Shown one piece after another: positions 23,972 to 61,422 of a stretch of 64,000 nucleotides of DNA (within the stretch, counting starts at the first letter, position 1; the number at the start of each line of letters is the position of its first letter). Both the position numbers and the translations under genes were made by a program. The stretch lies in assembly GCF_000026545.1 (NCBI RefSeq), contig NC_011601.1; one strand, given 5' to 3'. Origin of the DNA: Escherichia coli O127:H6 str. E2348/69 (lineage in GTDB: Bacteria; Pseudomonadota; Gammaproteobacteria; Enterobacterales; Enterobacteriaceae). The notes below the pieces were generated by a model. It searched no databases. It was given only the letters and a program-made list of their open reading frames with translations, and had not been told where the DNA came from.

Positions 23972-26215
23972 TCAGGCACTTTCGCGAATGGGTTCGATTT
24001 CATTCAGCGTATCAATTAACGGTTGCGGCTTACCAATAAGATAACCCTGCATATAATCGATCCCCAAAGAGAGCACCGCCTCGCGGATCTCTTCGTTTTC
24101 AACGTACTCCGCCACTACCCGCATTTTCTTCATTCGCGCCAGGTGGCAAATCGACGCCACTATCTGATAATCCAGACTATTTGACACAATATTGCGGATA
24201 AAACTGCCGTCAATTTTAAGCAGATCGGCATTCACATTTTTAAGCCGCGCATAGCTGGCGTAGCCGGTGTCGAAATCATCAATCGCAATCTGGCAGCCTA
24301 ATTCCTGAAGATGCTGCAAGGTGATTTGCGCCTGCTTAACATTGGTCAGAGCATTACTTTCGGTGACTTCAAAAATAAGTTGCCACGCTTCAATCTGATA
24401 TTTAGCCAGCAGCTGACTGACTTCAACAGGAAAACGAGCCTGACATACCGAGGTTGGAGACAGATTAATAGCAAAACGGTGAGCGGGCATCTTCGCTCTG
24501 TTTTCAGCCATAAATTGCAGCGTATGCTCAAGGACCCACATGTCGATACTCGACGATAAACCAAATTCGTGCGCGACCGGTAAGAAGCTATCGGGGCTGA
24601 TCAGCTCATCATTCTCACCCTTCATGCGCAGAAGAATTTCATGGTAAACATCACCACGCATACCGGTAATCGGCTGGGCCATCAGGAAAAAATGGTTGTG
24701 TTCCAGCGCCTGCTGTAGTCGATTCATCATCACGACTTTATCTTTCAATTCGCGTTGCAAATACATTGCTCCGCGACGCTGCATATTTTCCGGGGTGTTG
24801 GTCACGATGGAAAGTTCGGCCACCGTATTTAGCTCTCCCAGCAGCAGGTAGATATGATTCACCGGCGAGCGCACATAGCAGTAACTGACGCCAATCTGCG
24901 GTTGCATCGGCATTCCATCCCAAAAGAAACGAAATTGCTTGAGATGGCTATCCAGTGCGGTAATGCGCTCCTGGTGCGATTCTGTATTCAGCCGCAGCGC
25001 GAGATCGTTACCCGAAAGCTGATAAACATCTTCACCCGGTTCCAGCAAGGGTGACAGCCAGTGAGAAAGTTTTTGCTTATATTGAATCCGCAGCATGATG
25101 CCATAATTCTTAACCAGCATTTCCATGCCAGGGATGCGTAAATAACAAAGCGCAGACCAGGGGGCATCACGTAACGCGCGATTCAGGGCGCGAACATTTG
25201 GCAGATGAACCACCGGGTCCACATACGCAAGCCGCTGAATGCGTCTGACTACCGCTCGCTGACGGGTTGCCAGTACAGCCATATAATTGACAATAAAAGA
25301 GAATACCAGATAACTGGAGGAGGTTATGGTCAGCTGCGTGGTATAGCCAGGATAAATGGGAATGTAATTTTGATAGCTGTGGATGCTGATCATCAACACG
25401 ACCGCCCAGAGCAATGAAATCAGCTTATAACCATAGCGCATCGCTCCCCACATCATCAGGGGCAGCAATAATGACAAGGTGTAATTGGTGCTAAAAATCG
25501 TGCTTTTTTCATTTAACGGCATGCATAACAGCAACAATAAAGCACCTAATGCCAGTAGCCAGATTGCGAACTCTTTTTGGGTAACTTTGGCATCAACCTG
25601 CTGTTTTAATTGCGAATAATAGCTACGTAAATAAAACGGATTTCGCACCACCCGAATGATGAAGTAGCACAGCGGGACACCAATCAGATTACCCACCAGC
25701 AAGGCCTGATAATTGATTAAGGTCCCGAGGTTAAAGGGCATGACGCCGACCAGATTTTCTCTGCTCGCCAGTAATCCAACAAACGCAGCAAACTGGAAAA
25801 GTATCAGAAACAGCGTTGCAGGAAACACAATCTGCCAGAATAGTCGCTGGGAAATTAAACGGCTATCACCATGTGAAACGTTGTTACGCCGGGGAGTAAA
25901 AACCCTGTAACCGCCCCAACAGAGAATGATAATGATAATAAAATTAGCCGTTAATGAGAGCGTTTCGTAAAAACCCAGCTCTGCATATTTGCGGACAAAA
26001 ATCCCTAAGGCGATCCCTGGCAATGCCGCCCAGTTGAAAAACATCATCATGCTGATCATCAGTGCCAGTGGCAGATAAAAGAGAAAAACTTCACCGGAAG
26101 AAATATGAGCGAAAGTATTAATGTGGGCGAAAATGGGCAAGATTAAAGAAGGCAGGAACAGCGGAAGCCCCCACCATTTATCACGTATTTTTATATAAGT
26201 TGCATTCAGTTTCAT
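23972..26215 (-). CDS. pdeF: Membrane-bound cyclic-di-GMP phosphodiesterase PdeF (YfgF): MASE1 + degenerate GGDEF + EAL
   Basis: 747-aa ORF with polytopic N-terminus and a C-terminal EAL domain (EVTE ... DDFDTGYAS ... KIDGSF). Confidence 0.9.
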   Translation of the reverse strand: MKLNATYIKIRDKWWGLPLFLPSLILPIFAHINTFAHISSGEVFLFYLPLALMISMMMFFNWAALPGIALGIFVRKYAELGFYETLSLTANFIIIIILCWGGYRVFTPRRNNVSHGDSRLISQRLFWQIVFPATLFLILFQFAAFVGLLASRENLVGVMPFNLGTLINYQALLVGNLIGVPLCYFIIRVVRNPFYLRSYYSQLKQQVDAKVTQKEFAIWLLALGALLLLLCMPLNEKSTIFSTNYTLSLLLPLMMWGAMRYGYKLISLLWAVVLMISIHSYQNYIPIYPGYTTQLTITSSSYLVFSFIVNYMAVLATRQRAVVRRIQRLAYVDPVVHLPNVRALNRALRDAPWSALCYLRIPGMEMLVKNYGIMLRIQYKQKLSHWLSPLLEPGEDVYQLSGNDLALRLNTESHQERITALDSHLKQFRFFWDGMPMQPQIGVSYCYVRSPVNHIYLLLGELNTVAELSIVTNTPENMQRRGAMYLQRELKDKVVMMNRLQQALEHNHFFLMAQPITGMRGDVYHEILLRMKGENDELISPDSFLPVAHEFGLSSSIDMWVLEHTLQFMAENRAKMPAHRFAINLSPTSVCQARFPVEVSQLLAKYQIEAWQLIFEVTESNALTNVKQAQITLQHLQELGCQIAIDDFDTGYASYARLKNVNADLLKIDGSFIRNIVSNSLDYQIVASICHLARMKKMRVVAEYVENEEIREAVLSLGIDYMQGYLIGKPQPLIDTLNEIEPIRESA

Positions 26216-26566
26216 AGATGCTCAGCAGAATCCCCCACATCCTGAAGGAGGTGTATTCAGACAGGCATCCCACCTGACTTCGAATGATGATTATTCATCA
26301 CTATAGAGAGCAATGATTCTAAGTGTCATATGAAAGTTCCAATTGATATATATCAAACAAAATAACCCTGATTAATGAATTATTACGTTTATCATGTTAA
26401 CTCATCATTATTACATCATCATTGTAAATAATTAAATTAACTTCCATAACATTAAAATATGTATCAACTGACGCTTTTTTACATAACGAAGAATTGACCA
26501 TTTTGTCCTGTTGTGCCTTAATGTAAGTACCGTCCACGGCGTGGGACATACTTCAAGGAACCTTTT

Positions 26567-26758
26567 GTGAGTCAGGCAACCAGTATGCGAAAACGACACC
26601 GATTTAACAGTCGCATGACCCGTATCGTACTGCTCATCAGCTTTATCTTCTTCTTTGGCCGTTTTATCTACTCGTCCGTCGGTGCCTGGCAGCACCATCA
26701 GAGCAAAAAAGAAGCTCAGCAATCCACACTCTCCGTCGAATCACCGGTACAACGTTAG
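26567..26758 (+). CDS. yfgG: Small membrane protein YfgG (63 aa, GTG start)
   Basis: Track ORF with one TM helix (IVLLISFIFFFGRFIY). K-12 position between yfgF and yfgH. Confidence 0.75.
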   Translation: MSQATSMRKRHRFNSRMTRIVLLISFIFFFGRFIYSSVGAWQHHQSKKEAQQSTLSVESPVQR

Positions 26759-27068
26759 CGGTTACCTTCTCCACTCTCACAGAACATAACGGCACCTCGC
26801 TGTCGGATGCTTTTGCTCTTTGAGATTATCAAAGCGGCAGATATTCTTTCATCTTAAATTTTACGTCTTTGTTCTGACTGAAGTTCATCCTGTTCGGCTG
26901 CGAAATAAATACATCATTAATACATATGTTGTGATGATGTATTTTTATAAATTATTTCCCACATGAATTTTAATAAATTTAATCTATTCCTTTATACGCA
27001 ATACATTTACTTTCCTCTTTTGATGATCTTAAATGTCTTATTTTTCGTAATGTGTATAACAAGGAATA

Positions 27069-27587
27069 GTGATGAAATTTAAAAAATGTCTTCTGCCTGT
27101 GGCAATGTTAGCGTCATTCACTCTGGCAGGATGCCAGTCAAATGCTGATGATCATGCCGCCGATGTTTATCAAACCGATCAACTGAATACCAAACAAGAA
27201 ACTAAAACCGTTAATATTATTTCCATTCTTCCCGCAAAAGTTGCCGTAGACAACGCCCAAAATAAACGGAACGCACAAGCCTTCGGCGCGCTTATTGGCG
27301 CTGTCGCTGGCGGTGTTATCGGCCACAACGTCGGGTCTGGCAGCAATTCCGGAACGACAGCAGGTGCAGTTGGCGGCGGAGCTGTTGGCGCAGCAGCGGG
27401 TTCTATGGTGAATGATAAAACCTTAGTGGAAGGTGTTTCTTTAACATATAAGGAAGGCACCAAAGTGTATACCTCCACCCAGGTGGGTAAAGAGTGCCAG
27501 TTTACGACAGGTTTAGCCGTTGTTATTACCACGACGTATAACGAAACGCGTATTCAGCCAAATACCAAATGTCCTGAAAAGAGCTAA
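27069..27587 (+). CDS. yfgH: Outer-membrane glycine-zipper lipoprotein YfgH
   Basis: 172 aa with lipobox LAGC and a Gly-rich GxxxG segment. Confidence 0.85.
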   Translation: MMKFKKCLLPVAMLASFTLAGCQSNADDHAADVYQTDQLNTKQETKTVNIISILPAKVAVDNAQNKRNAQAFGALIGAVAGGVIGHNVGSGSNSGTTAGAVGGGAVGAAAGSMVNDKTLVEGVSLTYKEGTKVYTSTQVGKECQFTTGLAVVITTTYNETRIQPNTKCPEKS

Positions 27588-27602: not shown

Positions 27603-28142
27603 ATGAAGAAAGTTTTTCTTTGCGCCATCTTAGCCTCCTTAAGCTATCCGGCTATCGCCTCATCATTGCAGGATCAACTCTCGGCTGTCGCAGAAGCGGA
27701 ACAGCAAGGTAAAAATGAAGAGCAAAGGCAGCATGACGAATGGGTCGCGGAGCGCAACAGGGAAATCCAGCAAGAGAAGCAACGTCGCGCAAACGCCCAG
27801 GCCGCGGCTAATAAAAGAGCGGCAACGGCAGCAGCGAATAAGAAAGCTCGTCAGGATAAACTGGACGCCGAAGCCACTGCGGACAAAAAACGCGATCAAA
27901 GTTATGAAGATGAGCTACGCAGCTTAGAGATTCAGAAACAAAAACTGGCGCTGGCGAAAGAAGAAGCCCGCGTTAAGCGCGAAAACGAATTTATCGATCA
28001 GGAACTGAAGCACAAAGCTGCGCAAACCGATGTGGTGCAATCTGAAGCTGACGCAAACAGGAATATGACTGAAGGCGGTCGCGATCTGATGAAAAGCGTG
28101 GGCAAAGCAGAAGAGAATAAATCAGATAGCTGGTTTAACTAA
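27603..28142 (+). CDS. yfgI: Periplasmic coiled-coil protein YfgI
   Basis: 179 aa with a signal peptide, highly charged and helical. K-12 synteny. Confidence 0.85.
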   Translation: MKKVFLCAILASLSYPAIASSLQDQLSAVAEAEQQGKNEEQRQHDEWVAERNREIQQEKQRRANAQAAANKRAATAAANKKARQDKLDAEATADKKRDQSYEDELRSLEIQKQKLALAKEEARVKRENEFIDQELKHKAAQTDVVQSEADANRNMTEGGRDLMKSVGKAEENKSDSWFN

Positions 28143-28186
28143 ACGATGTTAGTAACTTCAAGTCTATAATTCTTTAGGATAAAAAA

Positions 28187-28210
28187 CCCTCTGTAGTAAC
28201 AGAGGGTTTT
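28187..28210 (+). terminator. Intrinsic terminator of yfgI
   Basis: CCCTCTG-6nt-CAGAGGG stem followed by TTTT. Confidence 0.8.
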
Positions 28211-28234
28211 GTTCATTCATAGTGCAGGGTCAAA

Positions 28235-28249
28235 TCATTCCCACTCAAT
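28235..28249 (-). other. guaA: Detached 3' terminus of guaA (last 4 codons + stop) = prophage/host junction (att core region)
   Basis: TCATTCCCACTCAAT is the reverse complement of ATTGAGTGGGAATGA (..IEWE*), which I recall as the K-12 guaA C-terminus. Sequence turns AT-rich and phage-like immediately after 28249. Confidence 0.6.
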
Positions 28250-28359
28250 TATTTACTAAACTCATAACTAATTGACTGAAAACAACTTTTAAAACAATGA
28301 AATTTTTCATACCGTTTTATATACCGTCACCGGAAATCAGTACCATGAAAAATGCCATG

Positions 28360-28842
28360 TCACCGGGTCAGCGAATCGTACTGCTTTTCACAGACTCGTC
28401 CGGCTTCTGCGGCCCGGTCAGCGTACTCTGCCAGCTGTCGGTTTCGCTCGAGAGATTTGCTGAGCACGTCGGCAAGCAAAACTCCGGTATCTGCGGCTGA
28501 CGCCCCAGTGCCGACAGTGGAGTTATACTGCCTGAGCTGCTCACGGATGGCAACGAGCTGTTGCTGCAACCTGCCAGCGCGAGCGGCAGCATCAAGAGCA
28601 TCATTGCGCGCCTTGTCGATCCTCTGCTGCGCTTCACGTTCATTGGTAGCTTTCTCCTGTTCATCGTGATTACGGGCTTTATCATCAGCCTGTTTCTGGT
28701 CTTCCTGCGCCTGCGCATACCCGGCATAGTACTGGCGGTCACCGTGGACATTCCAGGCAGCCACGCCGCTGATGACAAGAGCAGCAAGCATCGACACTAT
28801 AAGCAACTGTTTCCAGTACGCTTTGATGAATGCCCAGATCAT
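28360..28842 (-). CDS. i-spanin (Rz-like)
   Basis: 160 aa with an N-terminal TM helix and a charged coiled-coil periplasmic domain. Last gene of the lysis cassette, with an embedded lipoprotein ORF. Confidence 0.85.
28368..28604 (-). CDS. o-spanin (Rz1-like), fully embedded in +1 frame of Rz
   Basis: Internal ATG of track ORF 28368..28787 gives [12 protein letters not shown]|CSNSS.. (lipobox). 78 aa, Pro/Ser-rich mature part. Confidence 0.7.
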   Translation of the reverse strand: MMLLMLPLALAGCSNSSLPSVSSSGSITPLSALGRQPQIPEFCLPTCSANLSSETDSWQSTLTGPQKPDESVKSSTIR

Positions 28843-29465
28843 AACAGTGCCTTACGGGCAGCGGCGTAACGTGCTCGCCGGTCGTCGATACCGTTCTGGC
28901 CACCGTTGATAATCTGCGTGACGCGCACCAGGTCTCCCGTGTACTTCATGCAGCCTTTACTGGCGAAAAACCACGCCGCGCTGCGGGCCGCGTATTCATC
29001 CTGCGACAGCAGTTCAGGCTGAGCGACCAGATCAACCTTCAGACCATTACCGCAATCCCGGTAGTTGTTCAGACCAGTGATCTGGATAAGTCCACGACCG
29101 CGATAATTCCATCCATCACCCGGGCCGTTGTTACCCATGCGCTTGCTGTACACCAGATTGGCGATCGCGCGCTGGCGCTCCAGAGGAAGAGACTTCTCAT
29201 ATGTTTTCCTGCCGAGTGCGTTGGCCTGGTCTGGAGTGATGCGCCCGGCACGGATAAACCCAGACAGCCCGTTAACGCTGTAGTTGAAGTTTTCCTGTAA
29301 CCTGGTAAATCCTCCGGACTCATGCCCGACCTGCGCGATAAACATCGCCTGGTCATCTGGCTTGGTAATGCCAAACTCATTCATAGCAGCAGTGATATGT
29401 TGGTACCAGCGTGCGGCCAGTTGCTCAGTGATACCGGCTGCACGCCGGAACTGGTTAATGTCCAT
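28839..29465 (-). CDS. Endolysin, glycoside hydrolase family 19 (chitinase-like) type
   Basis: 208 aa with [10 protein letters not shown] and [12 protein letters not shown] motifs characteristic of GH19 lysins. ATGA overlap with Rz. Confidence 0.85.
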
Positions 29466-29763
29466 GTTGAGACCTCGATATTTTGAATATCTGCACGACG
29501 TTACCGCGCGTCTTCAGGACGGCGGCAAGCATGACAGCATTGATGATGACCTCTGATAAATCAGCGGCCATTGGTGTGTGATACCAGATTGCATATGCGG
29601 CGCGGACGGGGATGCTGGCTGACGCCACGATAAGGAAGTAGGCTATCCACCCACCCCACCGGCGGTGTTGCGATCCATTACGCCGGAAGGTTCCGACGCG
29701 GATTGCTATCGCAGAACAGATAACCGCATTGGCGACGAGTAAAATCAGCTCATGAGTTGTCAT
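29455..29763 (-). CDS. Holin/antiholin-like membrane protein
   Basis: 102 aa with about 3 TM helices, directly upstream of the endolysin. Confidence 0.6.
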
Positions 29764-30163
29764 CGTCTTTTCTCCCCGGGATTAAATCGCGTGGATTGTC
29801 GGAGCGGTGATAGAGCCAGATACCAATACGTACTGCGACGATTGCCGACACGAACGCGCCAGCAGAGAAGACGATCCCTTTCTCAAAAGAGTCCTGCGTG
29901 ATAGTTGGGATCAGGCTTGCTACGCCGATAAGAATTGAGGCAGTTGGTTTGTAGAATAGAAGCCCGCAGAGGAAGCTGAGCATCGACAGGAGAACCCGGC
30001 GGCGAATTGGATACTCAACGGCCGAGGTAATAAATATTACCGCGCCTGATAAAGCACCAAGCGCCACCTCTGGTGGAACTCCTGCGATCACTGCAGCCAG
30101 AGAACCCATACTAAGCCACTGATTTAAAGACTCACTGGTTAGCTGGGCTGACATGGTGACCAC
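29750..30163 (-). CDS. Holin-like membrane protein
   Basis: 137 aa with about 4 TM helices and a charged C-terminal tail. First gene of the lysis cassette. Confidence 0.6.
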   Translation of the reverse strand: MVTMSAQLTSESLNQWLSMGSLAAVIAGVPPEVALGALSGAVIFITSAVEYPIRRRVLLSMLSFLCGLLFYKPTASILIGVASLIPTITQDSFEKGIVFSAGAFVSAIVAVRIGIWLYHRSDNPRDLIPGRKDDDNS

Positions 30164-30214
30164 CGTTTACTGTGCATAAAGACCCCCATTAGTTGGTGAT
30201 CACATCATACACAA

Positions 30215-30232
30215 TAAACCATATATGGTTTA
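30215..30232. promoter_or_regulatory. 18-bp perfect palindrome TAAACCATATATGGTTTA upstream of the lysis cassette
   Basis: Lies 53 bp upstream of the holin ATG in the divergent holin/cargo intergenic region. Related copies at 60350 and 35309. Confidence 0.45.
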
Positions 30233-30350
30233 AATAAACTATGACACTCTTGGCGAGTTTCTACACATTATTTGTGGATAAATCTAACAAAATGAAAAAA
30301 ATGCACAGAAAAGTTATGATTACTACAAGATTGTTTTCGGGTAAATTGGC

Positions 30351-31358
30351 ATGAAAAAAACGATATCAATTTCTTTGTTTATCATCATAGCTTGCACGTT
30401 AGCAGGAACAGCGTCTGAGGATGTTGCAAAAGAAAAACAGTACGTTAGTGTTAATGTCCAGAAAGCAGACATAAAAATTCAGTACAAATATTCACTACTT
30501 GAAGACCGGGTAATTGAGCTTAATAGAACTGGTCTTAACAAAATATTTTCATTTTCAAGGCTTTACAAAAATTTTTCTTGGAAGTATACAGATTTTCCCA
30601 GTGGCAGACTGGATGGGTTAACGACAGTTCAAACATTCGACACGGACATCATTGGACCAATTATGGTCAGCGCAGAAAGTAATGAAGATGGTGATGATCC
30701 AATAGCTGAGTTCACAGGTGGCTGGCATGGGTTTAATGGGAACCAGAGTGGCTCTCCTACAGCCAGGCATGTTTCTCTTCAGGTATGGGTAGATGGGAAG
30801 ATGGTCAATGATACATTTAAGGGGTATACAAATGATTTAGTGATAGAAACCACGTCTAACATACAGGGCTTTAACACCAAAAAGAAAGATGGTTCTGGTA
30901 GAGAGATTATTCAACAGAAAGTAAAAATGAAATTTAATGAAGGACGTGCAGATGTGCATATCAAAATGGTTCCCCTTGAAAAGGTGAGGATACACACTTA
31001 CTACGGACTACAAACTGCACTTTCCCAACTGTATGCTAATAGTTCAATTCGTTATGAATCAGGTGACTCTCAAGAATGGAAAGACACCTCCAGCGGACCA
31101 AATGATAGTGGCCCTAAGGGTAAATATCCAAATGTTTACCGCATGACTGCAAAGAACAAACATAATGATGAAGTTGTGGTATGGTTAGACACTAAATACG
31201 GATTAGGGAAAAGATTAAATGTGAGTGATAAGTATCCTTCTGCTTTCTTTGTTGGATATAAAAGTTACTTCAATTTAATAAATGGTATTCCTTTAATTAT
31301 TTCTACAGGACAATCGGCGGAAGTTCACGGAGGCTTAGAGTGGATAAGATCAAATTAA
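30351..31358 (+). CDS. Cargo lipoprotein of unknown function (335 aa)
   Basis: MKKTISISLFIIIA|C signal/lipobox. Very AT-rich codons. Opposite strand to the phage structural genes. Confidence 0.6.
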   Translation: MKKTISISLFIIIACTLAGTASEDVAKEKQYVSVNVQKADIKIQYKYSLLEDRVIELNRTGLNKIFSFSRLYKNFSWKYTDFPSGRLDGLTTVQTFDTDIIGPIMVSAESNEDGDDPIAEFTGGWHGFNGNQSGSPTARHVSLQVWVDGKMVNDTFKGYTNDLVIETTSNIQGFNTKKKDGSGREIIQQKVKMKFNEGRADVHIKMVPLEKVRIHTYYGLQTALSQLYANSSIRYESGDSQEWKDTSSGPNDSGPKGKYPNVYRMTAKNKHNDEVVVWLDTKYGLGKRLNVSDKYPSAFFVGYKSYFNLINGIPLIISTGQSAEVHGGLEWIRSN

Positions 31359-31451
31359 ACTACAGTGCACTTAATGGAATATAGTTGAACTATTTATAGA
31401 CCAGCCATATCAATTAAATTTTAACAAACTGAGAATTAATAAGATTAAAAT

Positions 31452-32525
31452 ATGATATTGTCATTACAGTATTTAAGAGGGATAGCGGCGATACTGGTAG
31501 TTCTTTACCATTATCGCGGTGAGTTAAATGCATCATATGCACAAAAAGGACTTGGGGATCTTCTTTTTAGCAATGGGTATATAGGTGTAGATTTATTTTT
31601 TATGGTTAGCGGGTTTGTTATCATGCTATCAACAGAAAAAGATAAATCATCTTTATCGTTTGCCATTAAAAGAATCTTTAGGCTATATCCAGTATATATA
31701 GTTTGTCTTATTTTATGCACATATCTCCTATCAAAGCCAATAGATTTAAGCTTCTATAAGTCGTTGTTTTTTATACCATTATACATGAACTCACAAGCGC
31801 CATGGTTTGGGTATTCACTGATATATACTGCATGGACTTTAATGTATGAGATTATATTTTACTTTATTTTTTCATTTTCAATGATGGCATCATGGAGATA
31901 TCGCGGGTTAATTTGCTCGGCTGTTCTTGTGGCGCTACCTTTTTTAATCGGATATTATTATAATAATAGCATTTCATTAAGTGGATATGACGCTGTAATA
32001 GCGCATACAGGTATTTATTTTTTTGACAGCGCTATCCGATTGTTGTCTTCACCTATGTTTATTGAGTTTGCAGTTGGCATATTAATTTATGAAATATACA
32101 AGAGATCACGCAATAGATTTTTTCAGTTAGTATCAACAGGAATGGTAATAATTTCTTTGTCATTGTTTATTCTATATTACATTACTGGTGTAAATGGTGG
32201 GCATGGAATAAATTCAAGCGGTATGTTTGCAGCTTTATTACTATTATCTCTTACAGTTTATGAAAAAAACCATCCAATAAAACCAATTAAATCATTAAAC
32301 TTTTTAGGTGATATTTCATATTCTCTATACCTCCCCCATCCAATAATAATACAATCAATAACAACATTGTTTTTCGTTTCAAGCATATATTCCCCAAATG
32401 GTGGGTTTGGAAATGTTTATATAATGTTGATAATTGCGTTTGCTTTATCTTCCATCCTATTCTATACAGTAGAAAAGCCTTTTGTTAATCTAGGAAGAAA
32501 GATAATTAATAAGATTCGAAGATAG
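31452..32525 (+). CDS. Acyltransferase-3 (OafA/Oac-like) integral membrane O-acyltransferase, probable O-antigen acetylase
   Basis: 357 aa with about 10 TM helices. N-terminal LRGIAAILVVLYH motif typical of the AT3 family. Position next to the tailspike as in serotype-converting phages. Confidence 0.8.
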   Translation: MILSLQYLRGIAAILVVLYHYRGELNASYAQKGLGDLLFSNGYIGVDLFFMVSGFVIMLSTEKDKSSLSFAIKRIFRLYPVYIVCLILCTYLLSKPIDLSFYKSLFFIPLYMNSQAPWFGYSLIYTAWTLMYEIIFYFIFSFSMMASWRYRGLICSAVLVALPFLIGYYYNNSISLSGYDAVIAHTGIYFFDSAIRLLSSPMFIEFAVGILIYEIYKRSRNRFFQLVSTGMVIISLSLFILYYITGVNGGHGINSSGMFAALLLLSLTVYEKNHPIKPIKSLNFLGDISYSLYLPHPIIIQSITTLFFVSSIYSPNGGFGNVYIMLIIAFALSSILFYTVEKPFVNLGRKIINKIRR

Positions 32526-32532
32526 TTTAGCT

Positions 32533-32560
32533 GCGGGGTCAATGCCCCGCTTTTTTATTT
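32533..32560 (+). terminator. Intrinsic terminator of cargo operon (overlaps tailspike stop)
   Basis: GCGGGG-6nt-CCCCGC followed by TTTTTTATTTT. Confidence 0.85.
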
Positions 32561-35242
32561 TATCCTGTAATAAGTAGATCCTACACTAAGGAACTCATAT
32601 ATTCCTTGTGATGACAATGTAGTTATAAGTGTAGGTCCATTATAAATACCGATAGTCTGACCATTGAAATTTACTGATGAAAGATCTAGTAAAACCATGC
32701 TCCTAAGAAGCGTCCCATTCAATATAGTTAGCTCTGGAAGCATTAGAGTTTTACCAGGAGATAAAGTACCGCCAAATTTTATTATATTTCTAGAATCATC
32801 AGGCCATGGTGAAGCCGAGTTAATATCAGGTATTATTAAAATCTTACCTGAGTCACGATAGTCTGATGTAGAATAGAATGTTCCTTTACCTGAAGTATGT
32901 TCGTTATCATAAATGCCAGCAGGGGCATTTGTGAGAACAGGCTGATTAAATCTAGTACCTGCGAATCTTGCAATATCAGGTGCAGAAGTAGACATCGTTA
33001 GTGTTGGTTGCCCATTACCATTAAACCCAATTGCGTTTTCGCCAATACTTGATCTAGAAAATTCATTTACATCAAAGAAACCAATATCAGTGAATCCACC
33101 TTCGCTCACTGATTCATGGCTGTTTCCGGTAAATGAAAAATTAGTAAAACGAGATGAGCATTTAAAAGCCGGTCCTGATTCTGTAGTGTGGTGCCTACCA
33201 AACTTAACACCGGTGAATGTAATGTTATCACCATTTACACAATCCATAACATTGCTGATGTACCCAGAACCTGAGTTCCAACCAATAGAACCGCCTACCC
33301 ATGAAAAACCATCAAACTCCAGAATGTCAAATATTTTACCGCCTGTAAAAGCATAGTGTGTGCAGTTTGATAACATACATGACTTCATTCTTCGGCCACG
33401 AAAACCATACTTAGTACCAAACAGATGGATATTAACAAACTGTCCGCCTTCAATTCCTTGAATGCTGCCGCCACTCAAATCTGTACCGCCTACAAATTCT
33501 TTGGTCCCATCGACTATGATGTCATTCCACAATCCGTAATGACCCAGACCTGAACCTTCTCCGCCTCCATTTCCATCTTTGAATGAGAAAGTTCGATATG
33601 TTTGCAGAACCCATAAGTTGCTTATAGTAGGGTTCTCTATGACATCTAAACTGATGCATGCTGCTGTGCGCGGATAGGTGTCATCTGGTAACTGATGCGC
33701 TCTTGATGTAAATCTGACAACTTTTGTGACGTTCGATATCTCTGACGAAGGGGTTCCATTGCATCCAGTAACTCCGGTTAATGTACAACTCCCATCAGAG
33801 TTATTAACAAGTCCTGTAGCAAAGAAAGCCCCAGAGTTAGTGCTGAATTGACAGAAGTTACTTACTGGAACACCTGCGGTGTTGTTGTCAGTCAAAGGCC
33901 ATGTAATTATATTTCCACCATTAGCCTGAAATGGATTTGATACCAGAGTAATGGTGTTGGATGTTTTGCTTATCACATCTGTATTTTCTGATCCTACATA
34001 TTGTGATAACACCAGGCGGTCTAATGAATAGCAAACATTACCAAACACAATCCCCCTTGAGTTAAGTCCAAACCTTATCTCTGGGACATTCCCCAGAGAG
34101 TTTATTACACCTTCACCTCTTATTCCTATGGATACAGGGATTCCATCAATGGCAAATGGTATTGCAACCTCTGTGATTATGTTTACTTTTGAGTTAGCTG
34201 TAACAATCAACTCTCCGTAGCCAAGACGCACTAACGAGTAAATAGCAAGTTTAATTGCTGGTGAATCATTTGTGATGCCGGGTTTCTCAATGAAATTTTT
34301 TACTTCATTGATTCGGTAGCCATTCAGAAGTCCAACGCATGCCCATTTAGTTGTTTCGACATCCGGAAATTCACCAGACGAGATGGTGTGAGGTAATGCT
34401 CCAGTCCATACGTACCATAGCCCATCAGCATAAAGACAAGCATCATTCTTAGATGAAATGGTTAAACCTGAAGAAAATTCTGCCTTTTTGACAAAAATTG
34501 ATTGTTGGTAGTCGCTATAAACTGTGCCTCCATATGAGCTACCAATTTTTTTATCACCGTTATTTGCCAGCTCAATTAAAACATCTGAAGCAGAACCAGA
34601 TTCAGGTAAAACAGCAATAGGTTTACCGCCAGAATCAAAAGCAAGTATTTTATTTGATCTATCAGCATTTGATGGTATCTGGTCAACATAATCCTCAGGA
34701 ACTCTTAAGGTTCTTTTAAATAGAGAATCTGCATAAGAAATGTTACCTTCAGCAACTCCGTCAACGTAATTTTTTGTAGCTGCATCCTGTGGTCGTGACG
34801 GGTCACGAAGATTTCGTATGTAGTTACCCAAGGCATCATAATAATTTGCAATAAAAGATGGCTTACGTAAAGAAAGGCGCAGCCAACTAATTGCCTGCTG
34901 TATCAGCATGGTCAACTTATCAAAAGCATCCTCATGCACTTCTGCGAAAAACTTACCCTGATTTCTGAGATCAGTTTCCTGGGTAACCGGTAACTCTCTG
35001 GATATCGAAATCTGATAACCATTGGCAAGAGGCGACGATAAAACAACATTCCCGCCAGTATATCCGCCAGCCCCTGTCACCGTGTAATCAGTGTCCAGTG
35101 TTAAGTCAGTGATGTTTTCGCTCAGGTCAACAACCTGCACCACCAGATCAGACTTATGAAAAATTCGGAAGGTATAAGGGAATGATGTCGTGACCCCGTT
35201 ACCTGTGTAGTCATTGTGGTCAACTTCGGTTGAAACCGTCAT
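32555..35242 (-). CDS. Tailspike (conserved N-terminal particle-binding domain + divergent beta-helix-type receptor-binding/depolymerase body)
   Basis: Start set at ATG 35242 (MTVSTEVDHNDYTGNGVTTSFPYTF) behind GGAG. 895 aa. Gly/Asn/Ser/Thr-rich repetitive body. Last structural gene. Confidence 0.85.
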   Translation of the reverse strand: MTVSTEVDHNDYTGNGVTTSFPYTFRIFHKSDLVVQVVDLSENITDLTLDTDYTVTGAGGYTGGNVVLSSPLANGYQISISRELPVTQETDLRNQGKFFAEVHEDAFDKLTMLIQQAISWLRLSLRKPSFIANYYDALGNYIRNLRDPSRPQDAATKNYVDGVAEGNISYADSLFKRTLRVPEDYVDQIPSNADRSNKILAFDSGGKPIAVLPESGSASDVLIELANNGDKKIGSSYGGTVYSDYQQSIFVKKAEFSSGLTISSKNDACLYADGLWYVWTGALPHTISSGEFPDVETTKWACVGLLNGYRINEVKNFIEKPGITNDSPAIKLAIYSLVRLGYGELIVTANSKVNIITEVAIPFAIDGIPVSIGIRGEGVINSLGNVPEIRFGLNSRGIVFGNVCYSLDRLVLSQYVGSENTDVISKTSNTITLVSNPFQANGGNIITWPLTDNNTAGVPVSNFCQFSTNSGAFFATGLVNNSDGSCTLTGVTGCNGTPSSEISNVTKVVRFTSRAHQLPDDTYPRTAACISLDVIENPTISNLWVLQTYRTFSFKDGNGGGEGSGLGHYGLWNDIIVDGTKEFVGGTDLSGGSIQGIEGGQFVNIHLFGTKYGFRGRRMKSCMLSNCTHYAFTGGKIFDILEFDGFSWVGGSIGWNSGSGYISNVMDCVNGDNITFTGVKFGRHHTTESGPAFKCSSRFTNFSFTGNSHESVSEGGFTDIGFFDVNEFSRSSIGENAIGFNGNGQPTLTMSTSAPDIARFAGTRFNQPVLTNAPAGIYDNEHTSGKGTFYSTSDYRDSGKILIIPDINSASPWPDDSRNIIKFGGTLSPGKTLMLPELTILNGTLLRSMVLLDLSSVNFNGQTIGIYNGPTLITTLSSQGIYEFLSVGSTYYRIK

Positions 35243-35308
35243 GTCATTTTCTCCAGATTGCTTTTGCGCCCGGCGCGCATGCACTCTGGATCATTCTATT
35301 ACCCAATA

Positions 35309-35322
35309 AACCTTATATGAAT
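35309..35322. promoter_or_regulatory. Half-conserved copy of the AACC-TATAT-GG motif upstream of tailspike
   Basis: AACCTTATATGAAT lies 67 bp upstream of the tailspike ATG. Compare 30216 and 60350. Confidence 0.3.
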
Positions 35323-35347
35323 CGTTTAGGTATTAATCAGTTGCTTT

Positions 35348-35364
35348 ATTACCTTACAGGTAAT
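35348..35364. promoter_or_regulatory. Repressor operator, perfect ATTACC-TTACA-GGTAAT
   Basis: Exact match to the 17-bp palindrome that clusters at the cro/cI region. Confidence 0.7.
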
Positions 35365-35401
35365 TTACATTTCATGCTGGATAGTCCTGATATCTTCTGC
35401 T

Positions 35402-35421
35402 ACTGTATGTTTTATACAGTG
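35402..35421. promoter_or_regulatory. 7-5-7 palindrome ACTGTAT-GTTTT-ATACAGT (LexA-box-like but with 9-nt CTGT/ACAG spacing)
   Basis: TACTGTATGTTTTATACAGT directly upstream of the 86-aa rightward ORF. Confidence 0.4.
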
Positions 35422-35440
35422 ATTGCATGGAGAAGAAGAG

Positions 35441-35701
35441 ATGCAACGGCAGTATCACCATCCGCTGGAAGAAGGATTTGAGGAAAGAATACACACGCCG
35501 GTAGGCGTTAGATCCCTGGTGGAGGAATCGCACCTGATGAAGTTGCTGCGGGAACTCGATAAAGATGGCTTCAATGTTGATGGGCCACTTGCTGAACTGG
35601 TTGCTCTTGTGAACTACGTCACAAGTTCTCAAATGACCATGCAGGATCTGCAAACTCATCTCGATTACTGTGCGGAACAGTTACGTAAGCAAACCACTTA
35701 A
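35441..35701 (+). CDS. Acidic 86-aa protein of unknown function, opposite strand to structural genes
   Basis: ATG at 35441 behind GGAGAAGAAGAG. Flanked by an operator upstream and hairpin + GTGACATGTCAC downstream. Confidence 0.5.
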   Translation: MQRQYHHPLEEGFEERIHTPVGVRSLVEESHLMKLLRELDKDGFNVDGPLAELVALVNYVTSSQMTMQDLQTHLDYCAEQLRKQTT

Positions 35702-35702
35702 T

Positions 35703-35730
35703 GAAAAATAAAAGGCCGCTATTGCGGCCT
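35703..35730 (-). terminator. Intrinsic terminator ending the ejection-protein operon
   Basis: Minus strand reads AGGCCGC-AATA-GCGGCCT followed by TTTTATTTTTC. Confidence 0.75.
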
Positions 35731-35731
35731 A

Positions 35732-35743
35732 GTGACATGTCAC
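35732..35743. promoter_or_regulatory. Palindrome GTGACATGTCAC (copy 1 of 3)
   Basis: Perfect 12-bp palindrome. The 15-mer GTGACATGTCACACT is identical to the copy at 56018. Confidence 0.5.
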
Positions 35744-35750
35744 ACTCATG

Positions 35751-35891
35751 CTATGACAAACCTATGTACCCTGCTATACCAGATAATATTAAAACAACTG
35801 CGACGGCAAATTCCCCATCTTCAATGATACATTTACGGTTCATTACGACAAGCGCGACAAGTGCCAACACAACAAGAATTATAACAATCAT
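35751..35891 (-). CDS. 46-aa two-helix hydrophobic peptide (unannotated small ORF)
   Basis: MIVIILVVLALVALVVMNRKCIIEDGEFAVAVVLILSGIAGYIGLS. Starts 11 nt after the 824-aa gene stop and is followed by a terminator. Confidence 0.4.
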   Translation of the reverse strand: MIVIILVVLALVALVVMNRKCIIEDGEFAVAVVLILSGIAGYIGLS

Positions 35892-35901
35892 TTTCGCATC
35901 C

Positions 35902-38376
35902 TTATTGCGGAGTAACATCCTGAGGTCGCCACCAGTATGTCTGGTTAAATTCTTTCTTCGAACGCTGCTCCATCTTACGCAGATAGCCAGGGGAAAAATA
36001 TTCTTGCATCTGATTAAAGATCATATGATCAAGCGCAGCCTTCAGGTACCAGATGTTGGCACCAGGTGTCAGACCTTTTCCAAGCTTAACCAGATCACCA
36101 CCAGTTTGCTCGCTCTTACCTTCTACCGCATTCAGTGGAATACCCTGGCCTATTTTGATAACGTCATCGACCAGGCCAGCCACCGGTCCGAGCATTGAAG
36201 CCAGTGCGCCGCTTCCGTACCGGGTGTGATCAGACAACAGGAAATCACCGTACAGGCCAAGACCGCCGCCTTTCAGCAGAGCACCAAGCCAGAATTTAGC
36301 AGCATCTTCACCGACCATATCCCGCGGATTACGGCCTGATGCCATGTCATTTAGTTGCTGAGAAAGCGCGCCAAGTATTGTCGTGCTGGCTATAAACGTC
36401 GCGATATAAGCAGCCCGCCCACCAGCAGAAGGCATACCCATAGCCCGCGACCAGTGGCGCATCACGACAGAGATCGGGAATGACTTGAACAAGAATACGC
36501 TGCGGGTTAATTCACCTTTCCATGTTCCGCGCTGAATACCTGAACCGGTAACCATCTGCTCACGCGCGCCCGGAGTTATCACAGCCATGTCAACTTCTTC
36601 GGTAACCGCTCCGAGTAACTTACGCATTGCTTCAAACTTCACGCGCTCCGGTGATCCGAGGTGCTCTACAGCAGCATCGGGTATACGCATGATGCTTTCC
36701 GGAGTCAGCATCGTATCGTTGCCTTTCCCCCAGTCCTCCTGTTGCGCCAGTTTCCACACGCTCCAGTCGGTATCGGTGATTCCTTTGCTTTTCAGTATGC
36801 GGAAATCGTCATTAGACAGGCTTTTCAGATCCGGCGTTCTGGTGACAACATCACCAAGACTGCCCATCATAGTGACACCGTAGGCACGCTTGTGCGCGTC
36901 TGACCACGCAGTTAATCCACTGGCGCGCATAACCGCAGTTGCAGCCCACCGGGAGACAGACGGTCCCATATTATCCATCGCCCAGCGGTTAACGCTGCCG
37001 AGCAGTGATTCCATAGCCAAGCCAGCACGACGAGCCCTGGCCAATTCAGTGCGATTCGTTGGGTCCATAGCTTCAAGCTGGTTACGGAATAGCTGATTCA
37101 TCGGAAGGTTGGTAACCTTCGCTGACAGGTACATGGTTCCAAGATCAGAGAACGATGACAACAGAGCAGAACCGAGACGACTGGCAACCATCCAGTTGCG
37201 GATGTTATCCGACCAGCGCGCAATATGCGGGTTTGCAACAGGCTGAGTTTTACCAGAAATAAAGTTATACAGGTTCTCAGTATTGTTTGCCTGGCGCTCT
37301 ATACTACCGGTATCCTGCGGGTTAGCCGTAGCTGTCTCTGATTTCGTCTGATCCAGCAGTGAGCGGAACACATGATCCGGGTTTGGTCCGTAGGTTTCCA
37401 CCAGCGCAATGTCTTTACTGATACCTTCCAGGTGCCCTACCATGATTTCCCAGAGTGACCGGTCGCCGTACATCTGCTGGTACTGAAGGTATGAATCAGC
37501 GTCTTTAAAGTGGATTTGGCGTGAGGCGTTGCCACGGTTTGCCCGCGCACCGGAAATACGCATACCGGTATCAGTGAGTTTATTCAGGCCACCTGTGGCA
37601 ATCGTGTTATAGGCTTCACCGAGAAAAGCTGATAACTCAGTATCATTCATCAACTGGCCGTCGGCGCGTGTGTAATATTTGCGATCGAGTTTACCAATCA
37701 CATCACTTACCCACTTATCCTTCGATACCGCCCCAACCTTTTCCATAGAGTGGTGCTGTGGTATACCCCAGTTTTCCAGATATCCGATATCACCACCAGC
37801 ATCATTAAACCTGCGGCGCAGTAGCTCAGTAACTTCGCCCCAGGCTTTAGCCCCTTTCATGGCTTTCGCATTGCCAGTTTTCTGGCCGCGCATCTCAAAC
37901 ACCAGATCACGGACTCCGGCTTCATCTTCAAACAGACCGAAGAAACGAGGATCAACAGCCTCGAATACCTCCTGTAACTGGCTTAATGCGTAATCACGGG
38001 TCGCTTTCGTGCGTGACTCAACAGACAGAAAGTTTGATTTACCGTCAGCGCTGAAGGCGATCGTGCGGTTGAGTGCGCCTAGCTTTCCGTCAGCACCCTG
38101 ATAACTGTTAATGAAGTTGTCCAGGCGCTGACGCGCTGCGATGGTAAGCGCGACACGGCGTTTTTTCAGTGCCACCTCTCGCTGCAACTCTTCAGCCGCC
38201 AGTTGCCCGGCTCGGCGCAGGCGTTCAGCGTCGTTAAGTTGACGCCATGACATCGGATCGTCACGGGCAATAGATCGCATATTGCGGTAAATGCGGTCTT
38301 CGATATTCTGTATTTCTCGGGCTGTAAGAGTGCGCTGTGCTGCCTGTTGCACGGCCTGAATACATTCCTGTCTCAT
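35902..38376 (-). CDS. Ejection/internal core protein (824 aa)
   Basis: Third of three giant genes between the tail tube and the tailspike. Position equals T7 gp16 / epsilon15 core proteins. No enzymatic motif recognised. Confidence 0.6.
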   Translation of the reverse strand: MRQECIQAVQQAAQRTLTAREIQNIEDRIYRNMRSIARDDPMSWRQLNDAERLRRAGQLAAEELQREVALKKRRVALTIAARQRLDNFINSYQGADGKLGALNRTIAFSADGKSNFLSVESRTKATRDYALSQLQEVFEAVDPRFFGLFEDEAGVRDLVFEMRGQKTGNAKAMKGAKAWGEVTELLRRRFNDAGGDIGYLENWGIPQHHSMEKVGAVSKDKWVSDVIGKLDRKYYTRADGQLMNDTELSAFLGEAYNTIATGGLNKLTDTGMRISGARANRGNASRQIHFKDADSYLQYQQMYGDRSLWEIMVGHLEGISKDIALVETYGPNPDHVFRSLLDQTKSETATANPQDTGSIERQANNTENLYNFISGKTQPVANPHIARWSDNIRNWMVASRLGSALLSSFSDLGTMYLSAKVTNLPMNQLFRNQLEAMDPTNRTELARARRAGLAMESLLGSVNRWAMDNMGPSVSRWAATAVMRASGLTAWSDAHKRAYGVTMMGSLGDVVTRTPDLKSLSNDDFRILKSKGITDTDWSVWKLAQQEDWGKGNDTMLTPESIMRIPDAAVEHLGSPERVKFEAMRKLLGAVTEEVDMAVITPGAREQMVTGSGIQRGTWKGELTRSVFLFKSFPISVVMRHWSRAMGMPSAGGRAAYIATFIASTTILGALSQQLNDMASGRNPRDMVGEDAAKFWLGALLKGGGLGLYGDFLLSDHTRYGSGALASMLGPVAGLVDDVIKIGQGIPLNAVEGKSEQTGGDLVKLGKGLTPGANIWYLKAALDHMIFNQMQEYFSPGYLRKMEQRSKKEFNQTYWWRPQDVTPQ

Positions 38377-60436: not shown

Positions 60437-60670
60437 TTATCGGTCGTAGAAGAAGAGCACTAATTCAGGTTTAGACTTTGTCCATTCGCGGGAGCGACAC
60501 GCTTTAAAAAGACCTTCCATCAGACGCTTACCCGGCATCTTACGGCGACCGGTCAGGTGCGTCTGGATGTAATGACTGGTGGTACCGGCTTCAACTGCAA
60601 ATGCTTCACGCTCATCAGGAGACAGCCCCAGCCAGTGCTTTTTGAAATCAAATTTTTTTTCGTCACTCAT
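60437..60670 (-). CDS. Cro-like HTH regulator (77 aa)
   Basis: First leftward gene from the operator cluster. HTH segment FAVEAGTTSHYIQTHLTG. Confidence 0.65.
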   Translation of the reverse strand: MSDEKKFDFKKHWLGLSPDEREAFAVEAGTTSHYIQTHLTGRRKMPGKRLMEGLFKACRSREWTKSKPELVLFFYDR

Positions 60671-60708
60671 ATTTTGCTTATCTCAGCCTGTCTATTCATA
60701 TCTGAATT

Positions 60709-60772
60709 ATTACCTTTCTGGTGAAAAAATCAATGATTATTACCATTATGGTAACTTTACCTTTATGGTAAT
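60709..60772. promoter_or_regulatory. Right operator cluster (three sites) with divergent cro and cI promoters
   Basis: ATTACC-TTTCT-GGTGAA (60709-25), ATTACC-ATTAT-GGTAAC (60739-55), TTTACC-TTTAT-GGTAAT (60756-72). Leftward promoter candidate: -35 TTGATT (60728-33), -10 AATAAT (60706-11), 16-nt spacer. Confidence 0.7.
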
Positions 60773-60825
60773 ATTCATTTAAATTTAGAAGGTTAGGTAA
60801 TAATAAATGGGCAAATACAATAGCT

Positions 60826-61422
60826 ATGAAAAGTATTTATGACATAAGACGCAAAAACCTTAACGAAATCATTCGCCGGGATTTCGATGACACCCAGTTA
60901 CGCTTTGCAGAACGGGTGAAGCGTTCGCAGAACCTGGTCAACAGGTGGTGTACTGGTATCAAAAATATCGGACCTAATGCCGCGCGTATCATCGAAGAAG
61001 CAGCCCGCAAAGAAAAGTTCTGGCTTGATGTCGATCACGAACTGGACGCAGTACAGGATGATATCTTTATTCCGGCCACTGAAGATGGAGAATGGACTGT
61101 AGAGAAGCAGGCCGCCGCCACGCTCAATGCCTGGATGAGAAAGAACAGTGAAATGACATCCGAAAAGAAAGTTGCTGTTGCAGCTGGCATTGGACCTGCC
61201 ACCGTTAACCGCATCATGAAAGCGGAAGTCAGCACAACCATCGGCGTTCTTTCCTCCCTGGCGCGCGCGTTCGGGCATGAAGCATACGAGATGATTATTC
61301 CCGTCGGCTCACCTGGTGTTATCGACTATGACCACCGGATGTATGCAGCCCTGCCACAGGAAGAGAAAAACAAGATCACCTCATTCATCAACTTCGTGTT
61401 TGAGCAGAACAAAAGCAAGTAA
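60826..61422 (+). CDS. Prophage maintenance repressor (CI-like) with two HTH_3/XRE-type domains and no S24 peptidase domain
   Basis: 198 aa. HTH 1 is TQLRFAERVKRSQNLVNRWCTG. HTH 2 is SEKKVAVAAGIGPATVNRIMKAE. Divergent from cro across the operators. No Ala-Gly/Ser-Lys autocleavage module. Confidence 0.7.
   Translation: MKSIYDIRRKNLNEIIRRDFDDTQLRFAERVKRSQNLVNRWCTGIKNIGPNAARIIEEAARKEKFWLDVDHELDAVQDDIFIPATEDGEWTVEKQAAATLNAWMRKNSEMTSEKKVAVAAGIGPATVNRIMKAEVSTTIGVLSSLARAFGHEAYEMIIPVGSPGVIDYDHRMYAALPQEEKNKITSFINFVFEQNKSK

Follow-up and report, generated by a model that had tools for sequence, protein, structure and literature searches.

The 64,000-nucleotide window examined here (the whole stretch of DNA that was analysed) is 100% identical to Escherichia coli O127:H6 strain E2348/69. 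Up to 28142 lie the host genes yfgH and yfgI, and beyond them an epsilon15-like prophage of the Uetakevirus type. Three genes of this prophage are the subject of the present report: a gene for a secreted protein of 335 amino acids (aa), a gene for an O-acyltransferase of the AT3 family, and a convergent tailspike gene. All three had been predicted in an initial annotation of this DNA, and all three were found where it had placed them. Their coordinates, along with those of the neighbouring features, are collected in Table 1. In our reading, window 30,236–34,558 is very probably a conversion and host-range slot occupied by a horizontally exchanged, modular cassette of three parts.

Table 1. Features in and around the slot (window coordinates)
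Feature	Position	Strand	Remarks
Lysis genes (Rz-like DUF2514, GH19 endolysin, two holins)	28360–30163	−	
Divergent intergenic region, holin gene (−)/335-aa gene (+)	30164–30350		Backbone homology stops at 30235/30236
20-nt repeat, copy 1	30208–30227	−	Promoter-like; upstream of holin gene
335-aa secreted protein (unnamed family; galactose-mutarotase-like beta-supersandwich)	30351–31358	+	First gene of conversion slot; between holin and spike
Spacer, 93 bp	31359–31451		No terminator-like site; weak promoter-like site 31429–31456; kept in Citrobacter copy
AT3-only O-acyltransferase, 357 aa	31452–32525	+	Predicted O-antigen O-acetylase; between holin and spike
Intrinsic-terminator-like hairpin (GCGGGGTCAATGCCCCGC then T run)	32533–32550	+	Closes + strand unit
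Tailspike gene	35242–32555	−	895 aa from ATG 35242
Tailspike receptor-binding body (aa 229–895)	32555–34558	−	Exchanged part; TSP1/gp66-type N-terminal domain and putative beta-helix-type body
Tailspike N-terminal particle-binding domain and neck, epsilon15 type (aa 1–228)	34559–35242	−	Backbone, outside cassette
20-nt repeat, copy 2	35300–35319	−	Overlaps promoter-like TTCATA-17-TAGAAT (35321–35293), 58–77 nt upstream of spike ATG
824-aa virion protein	38376–35902	−	

The region from about 30.2 to 34.9 kb had been described as markedly AT-rich, and this was borne out. The G+C content (GC) of 30164–35000 was 36.9%, the lowest value that any 4,837-bp window reached along the 64 kb, against a mean of 51.4% for non-overlapping windows of that length (standard deviation 1.9, minimum 44.9). 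In the sliding GC profile the left edge was sharp, with a fall of 21.5 points centred at ~30,188. A discrete boundary was thus present on the left, but inside the spike gene there was merely a step of 7–8 points at 34.8–34.9 kb; a second step, of 12–13 points, followed at ~36.05 kb, and only there was the backbone GC of ~52% regained. The first ~115 tailspike codons, which had been taken as phage-typical in composition, were not so, since the N-terminal part of the spike gene (34748–35242) has a GC of 44.6%. The adjoining spike segment 34547–34747 has 34.3%, and region 35243–35901 has 42.8%.

The composition within the block was not uniform: GC was 37.7% for the 335-aa gene, 31.5% for the AT3 gene and 39.7% for the spike body, with 24.7% for the spacer 31359–31451 and 32.6% for the intergenic region 30164–30350. 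The three levels of the genes would suit another account of the block, in which O-antigen-related genes and tailspike genes are simply low in GC as a rule, and the three were acquired separately in a permissive moron slot and form no co-travelling unit.

The edges of the exchanged DNA were located by homology. Epsilon15, SPN1S and their relatives matched the DNA only at 34694/34767–35400, covering the spike N-terminus and the sequence upstream (84–86% nucleotide identity), while Enterobacter phage Tyrion and E. coli phage PAS61 matched only 30000–30236, in the holin region (85–87% identity). The epsilon15-like E. coli prophage L005, which occupies the same yfgI site, aligned with the window through 30235 and then again from 34749; between these breakpoints it carries another AT3 gene (27% identical) and another spike, of 720 aa. 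More than 100 E. coli genomes matched the flanks only, with differing slot contents between them, and the Salmonella relative L063 has gtrABC in the slot. Because of the L005 breakpoints, the flank-only matches and the gtrABC genes of L063, the stretch from the holin promoter region to about spike codon 165–230 can be regarded as a hypervariable, exchangeable position in the epsilon15-like phage group. The backbone genes on both sides of it stand in the same order in L005, L008 and L063, as belongs to an epsilon15-like slot. Within the spike gene, homology placed the junction at codon 229–262 (window 34,456–34,558), and the swapped body comprises ~667 codons; the initial annotation had put the junction near codon 115 and the swapped part at ~780 codons.

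The block was also found on other virion backbones. The epsilon15-like prophage L008 of Salmonella enterica was 98.4% identical across 29001–35685. In a Citrobacter freundii prophage (L010), window 30420–34456 was recovered as a single uninterrupted alignment of 4,037 bp at 97.3% identity, which runs from the part of the 335-aa gene that encodes the mature protein, across the 93-bp spacer, the AT3 gene and the terminator, into the spike body. This segment has as its neighbours genes for a J-type central tail fibre (phrog_469, phrog_31) and for minor tail proteins next to thrS, and the 825-aa protein adjoining it is unrelated to the 824-aa protein of the window. Because J-type tail genes adjoin the cassette, L010 represents a different, siphovirus-like virion type. 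The third backbone was that of the P22-like E. coli prophages L001, L002, L003, L004 and L007, which sit at argW/intS or bioA-ybhB. Here the order is intS, 335-aa gene, modifier and a convergent spike of 789 aa with a P22-type N-terminus. In L001 the AT3 gene and spike body (31441–34546) are contiguous and 93% identical to the window, compared with ~79–80% for the 335-aa gene against the P22-like copies.

This unequal divergence (79% vs 93%) again fits separate acquisitions, as do a modifier that is swapped on its own and a slot that is variable in 100+ epsilon15-like prophages. Nevertheless, a single 4,037-bp match at 97.3% covers three genes and both spacers in another phage type and another genus, the gene order is the same on three backbones, and the parts are jointly associated with one O-antigen cluster (see below). 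We therefore consider separate acquisition quite unlikely. The initial proposal of one exchangeable cassette is supported by the common gene order, the Citrobacter segment and the link to the O90/O127 cluster, but it needs amending in that the block is divisible, its middle slot holding either AT3 or gtrABC.

The divisibility was apparent in several copies. The 335-aa gene was 98–99% identical among P22-like prophages with AT3 (L002) and with gtrABC (L003, L007), and the similarity of the P22-like AT3 and gtrABC copies stops directly after the stop codon of the 335-aa gene. In L003, L007, L011, L014 and L068, gtrABC lies between the 335-aa gene and the spike body. The Citrobacter-type backbone occurs in an AT3 version (L010) and in gtrABC versions (L011 and L068), and the metagenomic relative L014 carries another GtrC type with a spike body that is 42% identical. 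In the P22-like AT3 copies the spacer between the 335-aa and AT3 genes is 481 bp of unrelated sequence, vs 93 bp in the window. The locus thus comprises three slots (leader gene, modifier and spike body), which recombine at gene boundaries and can be transferred as a whole too.

To compare the cassette with the O-antigen cluster of the host, an O127-specific query was composed of wzx, the CatB-type acetyltransferase gene, wzy and two glycosyltransferase genes of the E2348/69 cluster (L020:20054–24794). Of 5,426 complete E. coli genomes, 10 had the O90/O127 wzx–wzy region, and seven of these ten carried the cassette, so that in E. coli the cassette tracks the O90/O127 cluster. The 335-aa gene occurred in nine genomes of the same set, seven being O90/O127; the other two are assemblies of strain 2017.01.04CC, with a remnant from which the spike is gone. 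When strains were counted once, the 335-aa gene was present in 5/8 O90/O127 strains and in 1/~5,415 others. Among the genomes surveyed, the complete cassette spike occurred in no other E. coli serogroup. A spike body 76% identical to that of the window was found in a P22-like prophage of Salmonella serovar Worthington, which we take to belong to serogroup O13. Salmonella O13 is given as related to O127 (PMC7685785). Because the spike tracks the O90/O127 cluster and a related body occurs in Worthington, we infer a specificity for the O90/O127-type O-antigen family. The O127 unit is ->2)-L-Fuc-(a1->2)-Gal-(b1->3)-GalNAc-(a1->3)-GalNAc-(a1->, with two O-acetyl groups on the fucose (Fuc) (PMC7685785).

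It may be noted that at L020 14631–21325 (E2348/69 assembly NZ_CP059840.2, 1932630–1939324) the annotated genes wcaF-gmd-fcl-gmm-manC-cpsG are followed at once by the O90/O127 wzx, and the wcaI...galF genes are missing from the interval. Either the GDP-fucose genes of the colanic-acid and O-antigen clusters have recombined in this assembly, or a deletion has joined them, or the layout is a matter of the names used in the annotation.

The tailspike most likely starts at ATG 35242, the start also called in the Salmonella copy, rather than at GTG 35284. Residues 1–168 matched Dpo31 (PDB 28lx) at an E value of 2.4e-25, and residues 1–250 matched many tail PHROGs; PF18668, the TSP1/gp66-type domain, was found in the body. 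The body (aa 229/241–895) occurs at 94–96% aa identity on three N-terminal types (epsilon15, P22 and Citrobacter-type), and more distant bodies (42–56% identity) are joined to P22 head-binding (PF09008), epsilon15-type (903 aa) and T7-type (PF03906) anchors. Homologues of the body stand on four kinds of N-terminal anchor, and the protein has the build of a modular tailspike, with a shared N-terminal domain and a divergent C-terminal body. An AF2 monomer of the body had a predicted local distance difference test (pLDDT) score of 77. In Foldseek it matched LKA1 gp49, CBA120 TSP1/TSP3, K1 lyase, the Sf6 tailspike and GH110 beta-helix enzymes at probability 1.0, with template-modelling (TM) scores of only 0.2–0.3. 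The spike would recognise the O90/O127-type O-antigen, and probably cleaves it too.

The AT3 protein matched PF01757 with 120.3 bits (cut-off 31; E 1.2e-34), residues 3–337 aligning on profile positions 2–325 of 326, and phrog_3333 ‘O-acetyltransferase’ at E 8e-71. An R/K-X10-H motif in the first transmembrane helix and an RXXR motif in the first cytoplasmic loop are hallmarks of AT3 proteins (PMC9558356), and the protein carries R9-X10-H20 and R74-I-F-R77. At least seven segments had a mean Kyte–Doolittle hydropathy of at least 1.6 in a crude scan, which is not a topology prediction. The whole 357 aa lie under the AT3 profile, so that there is no fused SGNH domain. A sequence search for a solved structure gave no matches. 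The aa identity was 95–99% in L001, L002, L008 and L010. Its most likely role is O-acetylation, at the periplasmic face, of the O-antigen that the spike recognises, and it is a candidate for the source of one of the two Fuc acetyl groups of O127.

The 335-aa protein gave no match in Pfam, NCBIfam, PHROG or PADLOC, and a profile of its family gave none among PDB chains even at E 10. By fold it is a galactose-mutarotase-like supersandwich, with 4–12% identity to its fold relatives: the GH174 endo-1,3-fucanase (9k1g, 8jd7), PL26/PL4 rhamnogalacturonan lyases, aldose 1-epimerases and OpgG/OpgD. Against BFVD it matched phage tail proteins with a TM score of 0.76. It differs from GH174 and the other supersandwich enzymes in that it is not a member of their sequence families, there being no PDB or Pfam match.

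By an exhaustive profile search the family comprises no fewer than 1,386 clusters (50% identity). About half of the best 150 members are proteins of 450–1,285 aa in which the domain is C-terminal. Its fusion partners include the BppU_N baseplate domain, tail-fibre PHROGs, DUF4855 with F5/8 type C, and an SGNH esterase, the last exemplified by Pseudomonas phage DDSR119 gp23. Free-standing relatives in Bacteroidota have DUF4855, DUF4434, GH3, GFO/IDH/MocA oxidoreductases and a sugar transporter as neighbours; these contexts were found with a subset alignment of the family, as the full alignment was too divergent to serve as query. Contexts of distant homologues in Paenibacillus and in a Bacillota metagenome-assembled genome were uninformative, and a single-protein scan of a genome collection with one genome per species gave no matches. 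Among 50,697 phage records searched with tblastn, no enterobacterial phage had a relative, and the domain was present only in two Pseudomonas phage tail proteins. Kinship of the family with the spike body was considered and rejected (hhalign probability 0.07%).

Residues D99, P103, F121-T-G-G-x-H126, T137, Y218, K304, Y306 and G327 are invariant in the family at 22–30% identity, and no Glu is. This distinguishes the protein from GH174 Fun174A, for which D119/E120/E218 are listed (PMC11943901). The set of invariant residues looks more like a shared chemistry than host-specific binding. The ratio of nonsynonymous to synonymous substitution rates (dN/dS) for the gene was 0.19–0.26, indicating purifying selection.

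The protein has a single hydrophobic segment, at its N-terminus. The initial annotation had called it a lipoprotein, and an IIAC lipobox-like motif (Cys21) is indeed present in the window and Salmonella alleles. However, that label became doubtful when alleles were compared. The P22-like allele (75% identical) lacks the Cys, ending in ...IANA/DD; in the Citrobacter allele, position −3 of the lipobox is occupied by S, a poor fit; and the DNA shared with Citrobacter starts only at codon 24, leaving the signal-peptide region outside the shared block. An AXA-like site for signal peptidase I, near residue 22–25, is common to all alleles. The reading conserved across alleles is that of a putative Sec-exported periplasmic protein.

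A promoter-like site for the 335-aa gene was found at 30292–30320 (ATGAAA-17-TATGAT, 9/12). Because the 93-bp spacer has no terminator, co-transcription of the 335-aa and AT3 genes is plausible. The strong terminator-like hairpin downstream of AT3 falls within the 29-bp gap ahead of the convergent spike stop codon. No gtr-type Dam/OxyR phase-variation signature was seen upstream of the 335-aa gene or of AT3; there is one GATC in 30164–30350 and none in the 93-bp spacer. In gtrABC-type cassettes (L011 9030–9065, and L014), a hairpin with a 12-bp stem (GATACCTCTCTC...GAGAGAGGTATC) stands just after the stop codon of the 335-aa gene, which suggests that the gene is a separate transcription unit there. 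The 93-bp spacer of the window has no hairpin of that kind.

The placement of the two genes on the same strand, with no terminator-like site between them, raised the possibility of a dedicated partnership in the periplasm, in which the 335-aa protein and AT3 would come from one operon and make up a single enzyme system, the former taking the place of the SGNH domain in OafA/OafB-type enzymes; a partnership with AT3 in O-antigen modification had also been proposed in the initial annotation. Both genes and the spacer form part of one 97% block in Citrobacter, a relative is fused to an SGNH esterase in the Pseudomonas phage mentioned above, and the need of AT3-only proteins for a partner has been called unsettled (PMC9558356). 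Yet characterised AT3-only Oac proteins are thought to work unaided (PMC9558356), and the fold of the 335-aa protein differs from SGNH or any other known acyl-transfer domain. Moreover, the 335-aa gene precedes gtrABC, with no AT3, in L003, L004, L007, L011, L014 and L068; the gtr-type copies have the hairpin after its stop codon; the spacer of the P22-like AT3 copies is long and unrelated; and other epsilon15-like prophages, such as L005, have AT3 alone. A dedicated partnership with AT3 is accordingly highly improbable. Because the 335-aa gene stands equally beside gtrABC and AT3, its product seems to act independently of whichever modifier follows.

What such an independent protein might do can be approached from its fold and its relatives. 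Most likely it acts in the periplasm on the O-antigen or some other envelope glycan, by binding or processing it. A bolder proposal is that it founds a third class of prophage O-antigen conversion or exclusion factor, Sec-exported, beside Gtr glucosylation and AT3 acetylation. It would then be a free-standing copy of the receptor-binding or glycan-processing domain found on the tail-fibre tips of other phages, and in the periplasm of the lysogen its target, to be trimmed, remodelled or sequestered, would be the O-antigen recognised by the linked tailspike. We put this forward tentatively, as a possibility about which we have considerable doubt. If it were true, the family would be a new carbohydrate-active or carbohydrate-binding family, with no Pfam entry.

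The 335-aa protein might instead be a superinfection-exclusion or receptor-masking factor that blocks adsorption or DNA entry and leaves the glycan chemically unchanged. As an outer-membrane lipoprotein or a periplasmic protein, it would attach to the O-antigen or to some component of the outer membrane. The phage exclusion lipoproteins Llp of T5 and Cor of phi80 are precedents. The lipobox-like signal peptide of the window and Salmonella alleles, the place of the gene in the moron slot, where it shares its strand with the conversion genes, and the fact that in many phage tail-fibre proteins the domain forms the receptor-binding C-terminus would all agree with such a role. The Cys is missing from the P22-like allele, however, and the Citrobacter allele has an unsuitable −3 residue; the invariant D/H/Y/K/Y across Bacillota, Bacteroidota and Enterobacteria points to a conserved chemistry; and relatives stand in carbohydrate-utilisation loci, with no PADLOC match for the protein. 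Exclusion with an unchanged glycan is therefore unlikely. A role as a known defence protein was rejected for want of a PADLOC match.

Put together, the three parts of the cassette would act as follows. The receptor-binding body, grafted onto the particle-binding N-terminus of the backbone, would recognise the O90/O127-type O-antigen. AT3 in the modifier slot would O-acetylate this O-antigen at the periplasmic face, making the lysogen a poor receptor for the spike. The Sec-exported 335-aa protein would bind or process the O-antigen or another glycan of the envelope, as an independent third conversion or exclusion function. That O127 is acetylated by AT3, that lysogens are thereby protected from superinfection and that the 335-aa protein has an activity are inferences.

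Several points weigh against this picture. Three O90/O127 genomes are without the entire cassette; MB22, EcPF16 and KFu022 are O127 strains in which it is missing. The 335-aa gene is absent from the Salmonella Worthington P22-like prophage with the 76% body and from epsilon15-like prophages with a 45% body, it is 5′-truncated by IS1 in strain S1, and in the natural variants L066 and L067 its 3′ end has been deleted together with AT3. Because it is absent in relatives, truncated in S1 and partly deleted in L066 and L067, the 335-aa gene is dispensable in nature. The O127 gene cluster itself encodes a CatB-type acetyltransferase (PMC7685785), and the link of the prophage AT3 to O127 acetylation is a predicted one. 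For the 335-aa protein, binding and catalysis would both fit, as the fold match is one of 5–10% identity and the domain is non-catalytic in many of the matched proteins, and its co-occurrence with the spike may reflect simple linkage and not a shared substrate.

The deletion in L066 (6875–6878) and L067 (7960–7963), both epsilon15-like prophages from IMG/VR that are 98% identical to the window, is of 1.15 kb and corresponds to window 31313–32465. It takes the last ~14 codons of the 335-aa gene, the spacer and nearly all of AT3.

Epsilon15 itself has the same slot between tailspike and lysis genes, and alters the linkage of the O unit by means of a polymerase and polymerase inhibitors. It has also been proposed to encode inhibitors of O-antigen acetylation (PMC9558356). 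In Sf6, acetylation of the O-antigen used by the spike blocks superinfection (PMC9558356; PMC8787464). Like the present cassette, oac (OacA) of Shigella phage Sf6 and oacB of Sf101 place an AT3-only O-acetyltransferase gene beside the tailspike gene at the prophage end, and the P22-like copies of the cassette occupy the same int-to-tailspike position as the Sf6/Sf101 module (Lederbergvirus). The cassette of the window differs in that it lies on an epsilon15-like backbone, in a slot between spike and holin, and concerns an O90/O127-type O-antigen; an extra conserved secreted protein of 335 aa leads the module, and acetylation here is predicted from the genes. PhiV10 (Uetakevirus, E. coli O157:H7) is likewise an epsilon15-like podovirus, whose Oac homologue changes the serotype through O-acetylation of its receptor O-antigen (PMC9558356; PMC11854483); its spike body and O-antigen differ, and it was compared from the literature. 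The gtrABC genes, known from P22, fill the middle slot of sister cassettes, where the window has an acyltransferase instead. The phage Kapi1 (argW, P22-like), which modifies the O-antigen, was considered as a counterpart and rejected, its candidate conversion genes being different.

Tailspike swapping among Lederberg-, Uetake- and Kutterviruses involves a conserved anchor and C-terminal bodies that track the O serogroup (PMC10408124). Unlike in those exchanges, the exchanged DNA here extends beyond the spike stop codon, taking in the conversion genes, and the exchanged segment is also found on a siphovirus-like backbone. A seroconversion gene beside an exchangeable tailspike body is an arrangement already known, of which the present locus is an instance; what is new is the leader gene from an unnamed glycan-domain family.

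The host-choosing spike body and the putative receptor-hiding genes are thus carried on a single DNA segment that passes between podovirus and siphovirus-like backbones and among E. coli, Salmonella and Citrobacter, which bears on host-range prediction and on the reading of serotypes from genomes. Serotyping based on wzx/wzy misses prophage-borne modification of the O-antigen, and AT3 provides a testable source of one of the two O127 Fuc O-acetyl groups in E2348/69, the prototype strain of enteropathogenic E. coli. The 335-aa protein opens up a large unnamed domain family common to phage receptor-binding proteins and carbohydrate-utilisation loci.

An Rfam scan of 28000–36500 gave no non-coding RNA match at E up to 0.1. 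A direct repeat of 20 nt lies on both sides of the slot (Table 1). The two copies are 18/20 identical, and each reads as a sigma-70 promoter-like sequence on the − strand. A 17-mer of the repeat has two matches in the 64 kb, 0.01 being expected, and an exact 15-mer is also present upstream of the holin gene in the epsilon15-like prophages L005, L008, L009 and L063. The pair frames the exchangeable slot, and may represent a late promoter or a regulatory site held in common.

A few observations concern the DNA beyond the cassette. The zone 35243–36050, between the spike and the 824-aa virion gene, has an intermediate GC (~43%) and is just 76% identical to the E. coli relative L005, forming a second variable patch of the backbone. 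It holds a small open reading frame at 35423–35701 (+; 86–92 aa), which has no meaningful family, and a strong terminator-like hairpin on the − strand (35730–35713). Other short patches of low GC (35–41% in 500-bp windows) were seen at 26000–27250, 1750–2500 and ~60500–61000, the first of these being host DNA immediately upstream of yfgH.

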